Positions 2,612 to 7,083 of a stretch of 7,083 bases of DNA are shown here, one piece after another. Both the position numbers and the translations under genes were made by a program. A model generated the notes under the pieces. It was given only the letters and a program-made list of their open reading frames with translations. It did not search any database and had not been told where the DNA came from. How positions within the stretch are numbered: position 1 is the stretch's first letter; every line of letters starts with the position of its first letter. The DNA comes from Candidatus Heimdallarchaeota archaeon B3_Heim (GTDB taxonomy: Archaea; Asgardarchaeota; Heimdallarchaeia; Hodarchaeales; Hodarchaeaceae). The stretch lies in assembly GCA_003144275.1 (NCBI GenBank), contig NJBF01000086.1, positions 1 to 7,083 on the forward strand. Reading direction: 5' to 3'.

Positions 2612-4264
2612 CTAATATTTTGCAACCAATGGAATTCTACGGCCCGCACCAAAGGCTTTTGAAGAAATTCTAAGGATAGGTGGGGCCTGGTATCGTTTAT
2701 ATTCATTGGTGTTCACCATAAATATGACTCTTTCAACGGTGTTACCATCGAATCCTTTTGCAATAATCTCTTCTGAAGAGAGCTGTAGCTCAATGAAATA
2801 ATATAATATCTTGTCAAGTATCTCATAGTCAGGAAGAGAGTCGGTGTCTTTCTGATTAGGCCTAAGTTCAGCTGAAGGGGGTTTTTTAATTGTGTTTCGA
2901 GGGATAATTTCTTTGTCCCGGTTTATATATTCAGCCAGCTTATAAACATCTGTTTTATAAACATCGCCCAATAGGGATAATCCTCCGCACATATCCCCGT
3001 ATAAAGTTCCGTATCCTACTGCTGCTTCACTTTTATTTGATGTATTGAGTAAAATATGGCCAAATTTATTTGAGAAAGCCATTAAAAATATGGCTCTGAT
3101 CCTGGCCTGTATGTTTTCTTCCGTAATGTCGGGAGGGTAATCCCGGAAGTAAACACGAAGAGAATCATTAAAATTTTCAACGATCGATTGAATGGATATT
3201 ATTTCATATTGAACATTAAGATTGTCTGCCAGGGTTTTGGCGTCGGTTACAGAATGTTCCGTTGAAAATTTTGAGGGAAGGAGGAGTGCGTAAACATTTT
3301 TATTTCCAAGGGCATGTACTGCCAGCACCAAACTTACAGCCGAATCTATTCCTCCCGATAAGCCTAAAATGGCTGTTTGAAACTTCATTTTCAGGAAATA
3401 ATCCCGGAGCCCCATAACTAAGGCATCATTGATCCTTTTATATATATCTGCTGAAGCAGAATGGTTTGAAGATATTTCCTCCATGACATCCCCGAAATCA
3501 TAAATTCTGAAATCTTCTTTGAAATGATGTAGAAGATCATGAATTTCCCCTTTTTGATTAACCACCATTGAGCCTCCTTCAAAAATCAGTTCAGTCTGGG
3601 CCCCCACTTGATTTACATAAAATACCGGAACAGCATATTTCCTGGCTTTGCTGACAATTATTTCTTTCTTTGCCCATTCCCGGGTATATGAAAAGGGAGA
3701 AGCGGCAATATTGATAATCAGGTCAGGTTGATGAGGTTTAAGCATTTCCATGGGGGAGATCGTGTACAATCTTGTTTTTTCGAATTCGTTATCGAAAGGT
3801 TGCTCATCCCACAGATCTTCGCAAATGGTAAGAGCTATTTTCTTCCCCTTATAATGAATGATCCTGAATTCGGTATTGGATTCGAAATAACGGTATTCAT
3901 CAAATATATCATAGGTTGGAAGCAGGGTTTTGTGGATAACATCCAGTACCTTACCATTGGAAAGAAAATAAGCAGAATTATATAAATTTTTTCCGGAAGG
4001 ATTGGGATTGATGGTTGGACTGCCTACTATTGCAGCGATACCATTACAAACCCCAGCCAATTCATCTAACGATTTTTTACATTGGTTAATGAAAACTTTT
4101 TGCTCTAATAAATCCAAAGGGGGATATCCACAAATCGATAACTCTGAAAAAACCACAAGATCAACGTCAGCCCTTATTGCTTTCAGGATGGCTTCACGAA
4201 TAGCCGTAACATTATTCTTAAAGTCACCAATGTGATAATTTAGCTGTGCCAGAGCGATCTTCAT
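2612..4264 (-). CDS. nadE: Glutamine-dependent NAD+ synthetase (nitrilase/CN-hydrolase domain fused to synthetase domain)
   Basis: Glutaminase triad motifs FSELSICGY (E), HKTLLPTYDIFDEYRYF (K) and ICEDLW (C). Synthetase motifs LGLSGGIDS, ENIQARIR, TSNKSEAAVGYGTLYGD and KPPSAELRPNQKD. Confidence 0.98.
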   Translation of the reverse strand: MKIALAQLNYHIGDFKNNVTAIREAILKAIRADVDLVVFSELSICGYPPLDLLEQKVFINQCKKSLDELAGVCNGIAAIVGSPTINPNPSGKNLYNSAYFLSNGKVLDVIHKTLLPTYDIFDEYRYFESNTEFRIIHYKGKKIALTICEDLWDEQPFDNEFEKTRLYTISPMEMLKPHQPDLIINIAASPFSYTREWAKKEIIVSKARKYAVPVFYVNQVGAQTELIFEGGSMVVNQKGEIHDLLHHFKEDFRIYDFGDVMEEISSNHSASADIYKRINDALVMGLRDYFLKMKFQTAILGLSGGIDSAVSLVLAVHALGNKNVYALLLPSKFSTEHSVTDAKTLADNLNVQYEIISIQSIVENFNDSLRVYFRDYPPDITEENIQARIRAIFLMAFSNKFGHILLNTSNKSEAAVGYGTLYGDMCGGLSLLGDVYKTDVYKLAEYINRDKEIIPRNTIKKPPSAELRPNQKDTDSLPDYEILDKILYYFIELQLSSEEIIAKGFDGNTVERVIFMVNTNEYKRYQAPPILRISSKAFGAGRRIPLVAKY

Positions 4265-4288
4265 CCAATCATTTGATAAAAAAAAATA

Positions 4289-5014
4289 TTAAAAGATGAT
4301 ACCCAAATTCAAAGCAACGTTATTCATTACAACCTTGTCAGATGGTTGATTATCATGATCTGTAGTTACATCAAGAAAACCATTTGTATAGTATAGCCCT
4401 AAACATATTGCTGTACTTCCGCCCAAAGAGTATTCAGCACCCATGCCAATGTAATAACCAAGATTAAAAATATTCACTTCGTCTTTTATTGAACTGTTTG
4501 TAATATCACTTTGGAGTACGTCACCAGTCGCCTTTATAAGCACTTGTGGATACAACCCAAGGTTTCCATAATAGGTTAAATATCCGATTTCATTGGTTTT
4601 TAATTTAAGTCCAAATGGAACAGAGACATATTGAAGTTTGTAAGTGATTGTGCTACCCTCGTTTAGCATTTTTGTAATGTTCTGAGCAGTAAATGAAATC
4701 GAATCGGCATATTTTAATTTTCCGCCAAGGTGTTGGATTGAAATTCCCGAAAAAAAAGCATAATTCTCCGTGAAGTATTTTTCAAAACTCAAACCAACTT
4801 TAAAACCCATTCTGGTACCGGCATTTTCAACATCGGTTATATCAGGTTTCATCCACGCGATATTGGGATCGAGGAAAATCCCGAATCGTATTCCCTGGCT
4901 TAAACTTGTTGAGTGTTGAATGAAAAAAAAGAAGATAGTTACAAAAAAAGTAAAAATGAATTTATGCAATTTAACAGAAAGATTACATGCTTTTGTGAGA
5001 TTATAAACTTTCAT
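4289..5014 (-). CDS. Outer-membrane beta-barrel protein (PorT-like/'porin family')
   Basis: Hydrophobic signal ending TSLS-Q, then GIRFGIFLDPNIAW, YKLQYVSVPFGLKLKT, NLGYYIGMGAEYSL, YYTNGF and terminal LNLGIIF. The start codon is uncertain: ATG 5014, or TTG 4969, which gives a shorter and more typical signal. Confidence 0.85.
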   Translation of the reverse strand: MKVYNLTKACNLSVKLHKFIFTFFVTIFFFFIQHSTSLSQGIRFGIFLDPNIAWMKPDITDVENAGTRMGFKVGLSFEKYFTENYAFFSGISIQHLGGKLKYADSISFTAQNITKMLNEGSTITYKLQYVSVPFGLKLKTNEIGYLTYYGNLGLYPQVLIKATGDVLQSDITNSSIKDEVNIFNLGYYIGMGAEYSLGGSTAICLGLYYTNGFLDVTTDHDNQPSDKVVMNNVALNLGIIF

Positions 5015-5264
5015 CTTTCAGATTTATTTATTGATGTAGCAAATTAAAAAAATAAAAAATTTCCTTTACAGATGTAAATATAAAAAATGTTACCGGAAAT
5101 AATATCGGAAAGAACAGATAACTGATAAAACATGCAAGACTTTAAGAATTTATACCAAATCCTTTCGTTAAAGAATAAATGTTTTGTAACTAATCAGGAT
5201 AGACAATAAATTGTTCGGATAATTTTATTTTCTTTTTTTTGAGTAGTTGATTAATAGTAATATG

Positions 5265-5272
5265 TAACTTTG
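5265..5272 (+). promoter_or_regulatory. Bacteroidota sigma-A -7 element (TAACTTTG) for gldB
   Basis: Exact TAnnTTTG match ending 14 nt before ATG5287. A TTTG at 5238-5241 could be the -33 element, but the 23 nt spacer is slightly long. Confidence 0.6.
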
Positions 5273-5286
5273 ATTATTTGAAAAAG

Positions 5287-6306
5287 ATGAATAGAATATT
5301 GTTGCTCCTTTTTATTGCCGGGTTACTATTAAATGGTTGCACTCGAAACCGTTTAAAAGTAAATATTTCCCGGATACATTTGGAGATTGAAATATTACGC
5401 TTCGAGCAGGATCTTTTTAATATTGACCTAATGAGAATAAGTGATGAAATTCCGGAATTGAAAGAAAAATACGGAGATTTTTTCACATTGTTCAATCATG
5501 TTATAAATATTGGACAGCCGGATTTATCTGCATACCCGGAATATCTAAAGGCATTTATCACGGATCCGGTTAATAACCAGGTATATGACAAAACAATGAA
5601 AGTCTATCCTGATGTGGATGAAATAAAAGAAAAACTAACCAATGCTTTTAAACATTATCGATATTATTTCCCTGAAAAAGTTACGCCTGATGTCTATACT
5701 TTTATTTCAGGATTTAATAATTCATTGATCATTGACAGCACCATTTTGGGAATTGGGCTTGACCGGTATCTGGGAAGTGATTGTCTGTTTTATCAACGCC
5801 TGGGGCTGACCCAATATGCCAGATCCGTAATGATTAAAGAGAAAATTGTATCGGACTGTATGTATGCATGGGCATCGACTGAATGGAAATTTGAAGAGGA
5901 ATTTCAGGGAATGACACCTGGTAATAACGTGTTGAATAATATGATATACCAGGGTAAGTTACATTATTTTGTAAAAGCCATGATGCCTGGGGAGAAAGAT
6001 GAAATCATTATGGGATTTTCACCTGAGGAGCTTCATTGGTGTGAAATGAACGAACAGAGAATATGGGAGTATCTTATTGAGCATAAATTGTTGTTTAGCA
6101 CTGATTATATGGTAATAAACAAACTTATTAATGCCGCTCCCTTTACTACCTATTTTACAAGGGAATCACCAGCCCGCGCTGCTGTATGGACCGGTCTACA
6201 GATCGTTGAAAAGTATATGAGGAATTTTCCTGAAGTCACACTAACCGATTTAATGGCAGATACTGACTATAAGAATATTCTATCACTTTCAAAATACAAC
6301 CCTTAG
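5287..6306 (+). CDS. gldB: Gliding motility lipoprotein GldB family
   Basis: Lipoprotein signal MNRILLLLFIAGLLLNG-C. Family-typical segments: ILRFEQDLF, GIGLDRYLG, MIYQGKLHY, WCEMNEQRIWEYLIEHKLLFSTD, APFT...ESPARAAVWTGLQIVEKYM and terminal SKYNP. I prefer ATG5287 over TTG5278 because the -7 element puts the transcription start near 5278. Confidence 0.9.
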   Translation: MNRILLLLFIAGLLLNGCTRNRLKVNISRIHLEIEILRFEQDLFNIDLMRISDEIPELKEKYGDFFTLFNHVINIGQPDLSAYPEYLKAFITDPVNNQVYDKTMKVYPDVDEIKEKLTNAFKHYRYYFPEKVTPDVYTFISGFNNSLIIDSTILGIGLDRYLGSDCLFYQRLGLTQYARSVMIKEKIVSDCMYAWASTEWKFEEEFQGMTPGNNVLNNMIYQGKLHYFVKAMMPGEKDEIIMGFSPEELHWCEMNEQRIWEYLIEHKLLFSTDYMVINKLINAAPFTTYFTRESPARAAVWTGLQIVEKYMRNFPEVTLTDLMADTDYKNILSLSKYNP

Positions 6307-6408
6307 AGGGGTATGTAATAATTTCTGATTTATTCATTTTTTTTCATCTACAACACAGACAGCCATTAATTAGTGTCTGTCAATAAACTCTATATTTTAT
6401 TCATAAAT

Positions 6409-6590
6409 AAATTACAAATCTCAAATAATAAATAATTTACCCCGTGAAATAATGCTCCGCATTAAATCTCCGATTTATTTCACGGGGCAGGTAATATTCA
6501 AATTCGAAATCTCAAATTCCAAACTGTTTGAATATTAATATTTTGGTTATTGTGTTTTATTTGAATTTTGGAGTTTGTAATTTGTTATTT
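6409..6590. repeat. Inverted array of degenerate heptamers (AAATnnC-like)
   Basis: + strand units: AAATTAC AAATCTC AAATAAT AAATAAT (6409-6436) and AATATTC AAATTCG AAATCTC AAATTCC AAACTGT (6493-6527). - strand units: AAATAAC AAATTAC AAACTCC AAAATTC AAATAAA (6590-6556). The orientation switches at CAAAC-T-GTTTG (6520-6530). Confidence 0.75.
6440..6487. repeat. Perfect T-shaped (three-way junction) palindrome, REP/MITE-like
   Basis: An 11-bp stem CCCCGTGAAAT/ATTTCACGGGG encloses two adjacent hairpins, AATGC-TCC-GCATT and AAATC-TCC-GATTT, with no unpaired junction bases. Confidence 0.85.
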
Positions 6591-6668
6591 CAAGAAAAAA
6601 ATTCATAATTTAACTTTTATGGACGAGCACTAATTAGGATTTGTTGAGAGATTAAGATGTAGGTATCC

Positions 6669-6703
6669 AATAAAAAAGTACACGGATTGTGTACTTTTTT
6701 ATT
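6669..6703. terminator. Bidirectional rho-independent terminator downstream of the ferredoxin
   Basis: Perfect 15-bp inverted repeat AATAAAAAAGTACAC-GGATT-GTGTACTTTTTTATT, with a U6 tract on both strands, 21 nt past the ferredoxin stop between convergent genes. Confidence 0.88.
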
Positions 6704-6724
6704 AGGAAAGAATGCTATCGTTTT

Positions 6725-6892
6725 CTATTCAGGATGGATGGCCTCTACAGGACAAACATCTACACAGGCGCCGCAATCATTGCAGAGTTCAGGATCTATG
6801 GTATAAATATCACCCTCCGAAATTGCTTCAACCGGGCATTCATCAAGACAAGAACCACATGCGGTGCATTCATCATTAATTACGTATGCCAT
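6725..6892 (-). CDS. fdx: 2[4Fe-4S] ferredoxin, clostridial type, 55 aa (missed by the ORF track)
   Basis: Translated by hand: MAYVINDECTACGSCLDECPVEAISEGDIYTIDPELCNDCGACVDVCPVEAIHPE*. It has two CxxCxxCxxxCP motifs, 13 D/E and no K/R, its own -7 element and its own terminator. Confidence 0.97.
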   Translation of the reverse strand: MAYVINDECTACGSCLDECPVEAISEGDIYTIDPELCNDCGACVDVCPVEAIHPE

Positions 6893-6932
6893 TTTTTTAA
6901 AATTTTAATTAATACTTGTTTTTTTACGGCTA

Positions 6933-6940
6933 CAAAAATA
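6933..6940 (-). promoter_or_regulatory. Bacteroidota -7 element (TATTTTTG) for the ferredoxin
   Basis: The - strand reads TATATTTTTGTAGCC, an exact TAnnTTTG match 40 nt upstream of the ATG, followed by an A/T-rich leader with no SD. No canonically spaced -33 TTTG is present. Confidence 0.65.
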
Positions 6941-6974
6941 TATTCAATTTTTAATAAAAAAAATAAATATCAAA

Positions 6975-7083
6975 TTAATTGTATAATTTTAGAAAAGAAA
7001 CAGCCAGCCATGCCAGATTCCCCATGCCATGAAAAATAGCTTCTTCATCTATATCGAATGTTGGAGTATGCAATGAAGAGATA
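6975..7083 (-). CDS. C-terminal fragment of an M20 family amidohydrolase (truncated by the window edge)
   Basis: The - strand frame from 7082 reads ISSLHTPTFDIDEEAIFHGMGNLAWLAVSFLKLYN* (TAA at 6977-6975). 'LHxPxFDIDExA' is the metal-ligand His motif at the C-terminus of M20D amidohydrolases. Confidence 0.85.
   Translation of the reverse strand, partial: ISSLHTPTFDIDEEAIFHGMGNLAWLAVSFLKLYN

Follow-up and report, generated by a model that had tools for sequence, protein, structure and literature searches.

Why does a perfect T-shaped palindrome stand in the spacer between two convergent genes of a contig binned with the Heimdallarchaeota, and what kind of element is it? The window (the whole 7,083-nt stretch of DNA analysed here, contig G000:C6 of the bin) carries this palindrome in a 418-nt spacer between a gldB gene and a ferredoxin gene. 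A first-pass annotation of the window had described an 11-bp stem bearing two 5-bp hairpins with no unpaired bases at the junction, and this geometry is evident both in the sequence and in the DNA fold (Table 1). With DNA parameters, the T-shape is the minimum-energy and also the centroid fold of 6430–6500, at −15.1 kcal/mol. Shuffled versions of the same segment average −5.1 ± 1.95 kcal/mol (z = −5.12), with none of 200 folding as well. Under RNA parameters, a long hairpin rather than the T comes out as best, and the two arms do not form together. The annotated GGA in both minus-strand loops and the GCGGAGC motif are present, and the stem can be extended by TTA and TAA around a CAGG bulge as described. 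In a structural scan of the whole bin, only three perfect T-shapes emerge, with scores of 21–23; the next best candidate scores at most 14.

Table 1. Features of the gldB–ferredoxin region, in window coordinates
Feature	Position	Strand	Description or basis
gldB	5278–6306	+	TIGR03514
322-nt block	6385–6706	.	T element, heptamer arrays and terminator hairpin; joint 6384→6707
Upstream array	6409–6435	+	about four AAAtnnC heptamers; alignment with L031, L088, L130, L029 and L113
Full repeated unit, ~60 nt	6435–6494	−	contig depth spike, flank consensus, filled/empty pairs
T-shaped palindrome core	6440–6487	.	DNA fold and homologous copies with compensatory changes
Basal stem	6440–6450 paired with 6477–6487		11 bp; CCCCGTGAAAT / ATTTCACGGGG
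Arm 1	6451–6463		AATGC-TCC-GCATT, 5-bp hairpin
Arm 2	6464–6476		AAATC-TCC-GATTT, 5-bp hairpin
Downstream heptamer-like array	6495–6525	+	TTCAAAT TCGAAAT CTCAAAT TCCAAAC
Bidirectional terminator-like hairpin	6669–6703	.	perfect, 15 bp; adjoins ferredoxin gene
Ferredoxin	6725–6892	−	55 aa, 2x[4Fe-4S]

The boundaries of the repeated unit were visible when contigs of subsurface, sediment and cold-seep metagenomes were aligned to the window. Summed contig depth rises to 225–517 on 6436–6487, against 4–40 alongside, and the contigs diverge from the window at about 6422/6435 on the left and at 6491–6503 on the right. In this alignment, neither the uncovered parts of the window nor the RNA contigs (over 6549–6590 and 6422–6494) represent expression levels. 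The pile-up and the divergence points together mark out a repeated unit equivalent to the 6437–6494 interval first proposed, whose extent agrees with the depth spike and the loose contig ends. Beyond the core, the plus strand of the unit has TTTA as its left extension and CAGGTAA as its right extension; the minus strand has the purine-rich GGA loops and, at its 3′ end, a TAAAT tail, as is typical for the family.

Within the bin, the 48-mer matches only itself, whether exactly or with two mismatches, and its relatives required word-7 blastn. This sensitive search and the structural scan identified two further perfect T-shapes, at C89:1801–1848 and C71:12972–13023, as well as a relative with a plain hairpin at C5:~3515–3555 and a half copy with direct TTTACCCnnTGAAA repeats at C71:11146–11170. 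Compensatory changes distinguish the three full copies: a C-G pair of the stem becomes T-A, one position of arm 1 is A-T, T-A or C-G, and arm 2 gains one base pair. The loops of these three closest copies differ freely (TCC/TCC, TTT/TTC and CAT/ATA), so the suggested constancy of the loop over changing stems is not seen from copy to copy. A model built from the three copies (R1) gave a single match in 83 genomes of the bin's class, inside a 933-aa ORF, which we discarded as a false positive. On the minus strand of C71:11146–11200, the half copy reads TTTTACCCCGTGAAAT, with a direct TTTACCCAATGAAAA 30 nt further, and it lies ~130 nt upstream of a DUF134 gene. C5:3503–3560 and C89:1776–1870 have in common the flanks TATCGGAATTTACTCTCC... 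and ...TAAATTyGCGAAGCTATGTTC, around a plain hairpin in the former and a full T in the latter. Both copies directly follow metal-transporter genes (ZIP-like, MntP), and the C89 copy also precedes a CDF gene.

A scan of public sequence with the pattern GCCCYGTGAAAT-N20-36-ATTTCACRGGG, for which ~18 matches are expected by chance, returned at least 120 loci in genomes and at least 120 in metagenomes, with the core consensus CCYGTGAAAT-[two hairpins]-ATTTCACRGG. Among the matches listed, 223 distinct cores comprise 81 perfect two-hairpin T's and 21 near-T's; shuffled inner sequences gave a perfect T once in 2230. The usual architecture among these matches combines a 6-bp with a 5-bp arm, each with a 3-nt loop. 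In an alignment of 34 copies of this architecture, double-sided changes occur at 10 of the 11 arm base pairs, and the 12-bp stem is almost invariant; these copies were chosen for being perfect T's, which makes the diversity of pair types informative and the percentage of paired positions circular. The basal stem of the family, 10–12 bp and nearly invariant, can be written (GC)CCYGTGAAAT...ATTTCACRGG(GC). On the purine-loop strand, the left flank has the consensus RCYKGC-CCYGTG..., and the right flank reads ...CACRGG-GCARGY or GTAAAT.

The loops are not symmetric with respect to strand. In an orientation-independent test, 59 perfect T's have both loops purine-rich on the same strand, and the other 22 are mixed. 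The loops on the purine strand are mostly GAA (44), AAA (27), GTA (13), AGA (10) and GGA (10), usually closed by a C-G pair, and the 6-bp arm comes first on that strand, which in the window is the minus strand, in agreement with the annotation. The 59:22 ratio and the GNA-type counts indicate that the idea of a conserved GNA loop survives as a bias at the level of the family, rather than as conservation between copies. One locus, L280 (G405:C3:100500–116500), contains seven variant cores within 15 kb, spaced 1.5–5 kb apart with ordinary genes between them; the variant core has the family stem, and its inner part, 24 nt long (GCRCAAACCCTCGCGATGTCC), does not form a two-hairpin T.

The T-shape is maintained in the family, with covariation that preserves it, and the annotated reading of a non-autonomous repeat of the REP/MITE type is supported. 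Hairpin-templated correction, instead of selection, could be what maintains the perfect pairing. Far from being a single copy without relatives, the palindrome has hundreds of homologues. The notion that it is a chance palindrome or an assembly artefact has nothing in its favour beyond the single occurrence of the exact 48-mer in the bin, and it is contradicted by the shuffling result (z = −5.1, 0 of 200 as good), by an identical copy at the orthologous site of an independent assembly and by the homologues themselves. We consider it refuted, with next to no probability left to it. No description of the family was found in Rfam or in the literature searched (on REPs in Bacteroidetes, T-shaped repeats and mini-hairpins), and it has apparently been undescribed until now. 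We class it as a REP/MITE-like small palindromic repeat.

The search for homologues also bears on the identity of the host. A contig of G084, a MAG of the order Bacteroidales labelled Rikenellaceae, is 99.0% identical to window positions 3778–7082, with the T included unchanged (G084:C1). Likewise, identity is 99% between C89 and G084:C308 and 97–98% between C71 and G084:C28. The core pattern is absent from 399 other genomes sampled in the bin's phylum, and no gldB homologue was found in 21 genomes of the same genus. By tetranucleotide distance from the large contigs of the bin, the T-bearing contigs C6, C89, C71, C5 and C39 rank 90–100 of 103. These five results indicate that the window contig and C89, C71, C5 and C39 are probably mis-binned DNA of the G084 species. 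A difference between the assemblies was seen at G084:C28:16188–17104, where ~917 nt are extra between two genes compared with C71:~10440 in sequence that is otherwise 97–98% identical.

Copy number is very uneven among relatives. G084 has about 70–95 copies and G083 about as many, and most relatives have 0–6. A second model (R2) gave, among the matches listed, 148 strand matches in G083, 143 in G084, 84 in G085 and 6 in G086. With a loose pattern applied to 301 genomes of the order, G084 has 95 matches, G631 has 33 and G478 has 61, with 0–6 in every other genome; the 61 in G478 have a non-T inner sequence among the matches listed and were excluded from the count of T elements. The matches listed are in large majority labelled Bacteroidota, and a few carry the labels Patescibacteria, Cloacimonadota, Verrucomicrobiota, Anaerolineales, Desulfobacterota, Spirochaetales and others. 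Since the window's own contig is mis-binned, the phylum labels of MAG matches may be unreliable. Core-bearing contigs range from below 35% to above 60% GC, with perfect T's up to ~60% GC and a different 36-nt inner part in the cores above that, and this wide range indicates that several lineages are really involved, whatever their unverified labels. The T core has no match in PLSDB plasmids or INPHARED phages.

Comparison of filled and empty sites reveals the T as a discrete inserted unit of ~53–62 nt without a clear target-site duplication. The clearest case is a pair of paralogous GIY-YIG genes (L086 in G404) that differ by a 53-nt insertion, consisting of a 50-nt T plus TAA, which shifts the frame in one of them; the intact paralogue gives the empty site as TCA|ATC. 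Searching again with the joined flanks of T's gave 61 filled/empty alignments to T-less paralogous repeats, many of which lie inside other repeat families and possibly descend from few events. The inserted unit has the form, for example, (C)TTGC-T-GTAAA. At the junctions, 1–3 nt are replaced or there is microhomology, with no consistent duplication of the target. Several of these T's occupy the loop of a hairpin that was already there, and over all sites the flanks form a perfect inverted repeat of at least 7 nt at 12.4%, versus 2.0% with shuffled partners.

The family is multi-copy, patchy among relatives, inserted in either orientation to genes and recently active. Both G083 and G084 have several sites with a T and a 21-nt tail containing GCGAAGC that match at 100% identity over 69 nt, and the flanking genes of G083 are only 87–98% identical to those of C89 and C71, which are contigs of the G084 species. 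Such identical copies at several loci of two species indicate recent activity. With respect to one family of host repeats, T copies lie either way round (C89 versus L203/L256; L256 versus L056). Between the purine-loop strand and GC skew, 40 short loci of fragmented MAGs show a weak trend (p = 0.04 by t-test, sign test not significant). T's favour two kinds of site, the space between convergent genes and the loops of other palindromic repeats.

In the window, the T shares its spacer with other repeats. In G085 and G086, the arrangement of gldB and ferredoxin genes pointing toward one another is kept, and the spacer is only ~55–60 nt, as against 418 nt in the window, and consists essentially of one bidirectional terminator. 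That hairpin (6669–6703 in the window) is the only intergenic feature kept in G085 and is separate from the T element. The 322-nt block that includes the T is missing from one same-species cold-seep contig, which has AAA microhomology at the joint; this contig is 850 nt long with 61 nt on its shorter side. The upstream heptamer array is common, with drift in its sequence, to the closest T copies of other genomes. As a component of the element, the heptamer arrays were rejected, since a strong period-7 signal is present at only 6% of sites. An inverted heptamer set follows the T at 6557–6590, with metatranscriptome contigs of high summed depth over 6549–6590. Arrays of GCAACAA or CGGTAAT heptamers surround other T copies, and in L080 such arrays flank a four-helix-bundle (PF05635) gene. 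A 53-nt module composed of a hairpin ACAGACA...TGTCTGT plus AATAAACTCTATATTT is found at 6365–6417 and, at 87% identity, at G000:C39:497–549. The C39 module is followed by a CCGATAGCTATCGG palindrome, and the T occupies the same place in the window; this module with alternating palindromes makes up a mosaic, BIME-like arrangement.

What moves the element is the next question. The annotation found no cognate enzyme encoded in the window, and there is none there. Elsewhere, no mobilising enzyme for the T and no constant neighbouring gene at T sites were found. No recurrent gene family emerged beside T copies, where clustering gave common ECF sigma factors, ABC transporters and histidine kinases, and the genes between close T pairs are ordinary ones such as pyrBI and membrane proteins. 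Y1_Tnp genes are absent from the bin and number 1–11 in all Bacteroidales-order genomes tested, T-rich (3–11) or T-poor, for which reason we rejected their presence as a marker of T-rich genomes. The one Y1 gene examined in detail, in G083, is flanked by a different hairpin family, xxCCGATGGxx, suggesting that the CCGAT family, and not the T, is the REP of those Y1 genes. This second palindromic family, with the centre CCGAT(A/G)GC(T/C)ATCGG, also occurs in the mis-binned contigs, at C39:481–494, C71:95–108, C71:13041–13054 and C5:2558–2571; its copies are inverted at both ends of C71, and related hairpins at L268:1300–1380 and 1890–1965 flank the G083 Y1 gene.

One could still suppose that the T is a bona fide REP or REPIN mobilised by a RAYT (a Y1 HUH transposase), or a satellite of small GIY-YIG nuclease genes that supply the cutting activity. 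Every T-rich genome does have its 3–11 Y1_Tnp genes, and Quentin et al. (2018, PMC6006769) report "atypical secondary structures" on the flanks of the Bacteroidetes RAYT subclass 2.6. The nuclease connection draws on G404, in which every T seen lies 181 nt after, or within, a GIY-YIG gene in 794-nt tandem units, and on small GIY-YIG genes within 215 nt of three T sites and PF05635 four-helix-bundle genes within 300 nt of four. Yet GIY-YIG or helix-bundle genes lie near fewer than 3% of T sites, which speaks against the clustering that the annotation had thought worth checking, and its link to HUH/RAYT enzymes fares no better: a T lies within 1.5 kb of only 2 of the 18 Y1_Tnp loci examined, never on both sides, the Y1 flanks are the xxCCGATGGxx hairpins, and Y1 genes reside in T-poor genomes too. 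As a short multi-copy extragenic palindrome, mostly intergenic and with ~70–95 copies in G084, the T resembles a REP; its flank consensus contains neither GTAG nor GTGG where a REP has a 5′ GT[AG]G at the hairpin foot, and no cognate RAYT gene flanks it as in a REPtron, so that membership in the REP/RAYT system fails on two defining features. Neither GTGAAAT nor ATTTCAC is present in the published REP tables (Quentin et al. 2018, PMC6006769). The terminal inverted repeats and target-site duplication of a MITE are likewise lacking, the T being a single palindrome. We therefore consider a true RAYT or GIY-YIG satellite improbable on these counts. As for the enzyme itself, a Y1 HUH transposase is our leading guess, one that we hold tentatively. 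The 794-nt arrays of G404 are at L279 (G404:C12:534000–540500) and L086:4600–7700; their units face the same way, and the T of the first unit is inside the gene.

Two further readings place the function of the T in the host rather than in its mobility. In one, it would be a structured RNA (a 3′-UTR stabiliser, an unconventional terminator or a small-RNA module) that spread through its usefulness at gene ends. This would suit the location of T sites, which lie between convergent genes in 33 cases versus 15 divergent ones (background, 119 versus 121) and have a median distance of ~145 nt from gene 3′ ends, as well as the G-T wobble positions in the stem extension. Transcription of some T copies is possible, since one metatranscriptome contig covers 6422–6494. 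However, the purine-loop strand bears no relation to the way the neighbouring gene points (20:27 at 3′ ends, 18:18 at 5′ ends), no T-run follows 6487 or, on the other strand, 6440, and the terminator scan makes no call. Neither is the T produced by RNA energy parameters, nor does Rfam give any match to the whole window at E ≤ 1; the triloops are of the DNA mini-hairpin type and not GNRA or UNCG tetraloops, and copies also lie within a coding gene and other repeats. The structured-RNA option left open by the annotation is accordingly disfavoured, and we rate it as unlikely. In the other reading, the TGTGAAAT...ATTTCACA stem would be a site used by the host, bound as a duplex or cruciform by a nucleoid, topoisomerase or regulatory protein, with mobility being secondary. 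BIME and REP sites bind gyrase and IHF, the basal stem is base-identical across contigs of 30–63% GC around a freely variable inner part, half copies with direct TTTACCCnnTGAAA repeats exist (C71:11146–11170), and the half-sites resemble CRP-type TGTGA/TCACA. A housekeeping site is a poor fit to the extreme patchiness of the family: only a few of 301 genomes sampled in the order have it in abundance, and 399 other genomes sampled in the bin's phylum lack it. The compensatory changes in the arms favour intrastrand pairing, and a gene is disrupted by discrete insertion. We regard it, too, as an unlikely account of the family.

The reading that we favour, and think reasonably probable, is that the palindrome belongs to a dispersed, non-autonomous repeat family of uncultured sediment bacteria, which acts at the level of DNA and is a candidate for movement as a single strand. 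Five observations lead us to infer that the T probably moves in the form of a folded DNA single strand: the type of its triloops, the strand asymmetry of its loops, targets that are not duplicated, a preference for the tips of hairpins and an orientation independent of transcription. A trans-acting enzyme specific for both structure and sequence would recognise the stem, the arms would be retained only as stable DNA mini-hairpins of the C-GNA-G type, and integration would take place into transiently single-stranded DNA, such as the tips of hairpins. A more specific version, in which a ~50-nt T-shaped single-stranded DNA element with a 12-bp stem base-conserved across several bacterial phyla integrates preferentially at the tips of other hairpins by means of a structure-specific enzyme other than a RAYT, we consider possible, if rather doubtful. 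Were it true, the T would be a bacterial counterpart of the logic of parvoviral ITRs and Rep and the smallest branched mobile DNA known.

The family shares features with several known systems without matching any of them fully. Like REPs, BIMEs and REPINs, T's are short extragenic palindromes with tens to hundreds of copies, a patchy distribution, enrichment between convergent genes, mosaic and nested arrangements with other repeats and no target duplication. REPs are simple or bulged hairpins that co-evolve each with its own RAYT, whereas the T is a three-way junction and has a stem found again in contigs that bear the labels of several phyla. The palindrome-associated elements of IS200/IS605 ("peel and paste") resemble it in their hairpin-defined ends, lack of target duplication and plausible single-stranded targets. 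Unlike these, the T is one symmetric palindrome of ~50–60 nt without distinct left and right ends, and its junctions vary, with no fixed target tetranucleotide emerging; no parent IS was found, and no gene recurs beside or between T copies. Integron attC sites also conserve structure over sequence, with a conserved base stem and a variable, possibly branched tip, and in G404 T copies of the same orientation punctuate an array of small genes. However, the T lacks the R″/R′ core sites (RYYYAAC ... GTTRRRY), and most copies are single and scattered. The topology A-B-B′-C-C′-A′, with two small arms on a conserved stem, is that of the AAV ITR, which is acted on by the HUH protein Rep and whose stem carries the protein recognition sequence. 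The resemblance is one of shape only, the ITRs being the 125–145-nt ends of a linear single-stranded DNA genome and the T's being 48–52 nt and interspersed in bacterial chromosomes. Finally, d(GCGNAGC) sequences are extraordinarily stable DNA mini-hairpins (Hirao and co-workers; PMC13037366). The arms of the T, whose folding is predicted only, are commonly closed by C-G around GAA, GTA or GGA; GCGGAGC is found in the window, and many copies and tails contain GCGAAGC. The d(GCGNAGC) sequence itself is a physico-chemical motif and not a genetic element.

REPs, REPINs and MITEs shape the chromosomes of bacteria, interrupt metagenome assemblies and are markers of single-stranded DNA transactions. 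To our knowledge, the small palindromic repeats described so far are simple hairpins tied to a known transposase. To these, the T family adds a branched fold free of unpaired junction bases with DNA-type triloops, a recognition stem common to very different genomes and an apparent preference for insertion into the loops of other hairpins. On the practical side, T-rich contigs assemble short and stand out in composition, and here they were placed in the wrong bin. Because no cognate enzyme is visible, the hunt for a new structure-specific DNA enzyme now becomes concrete, with a defined bait sequence and with T-rich and T-poor sister genomes named.
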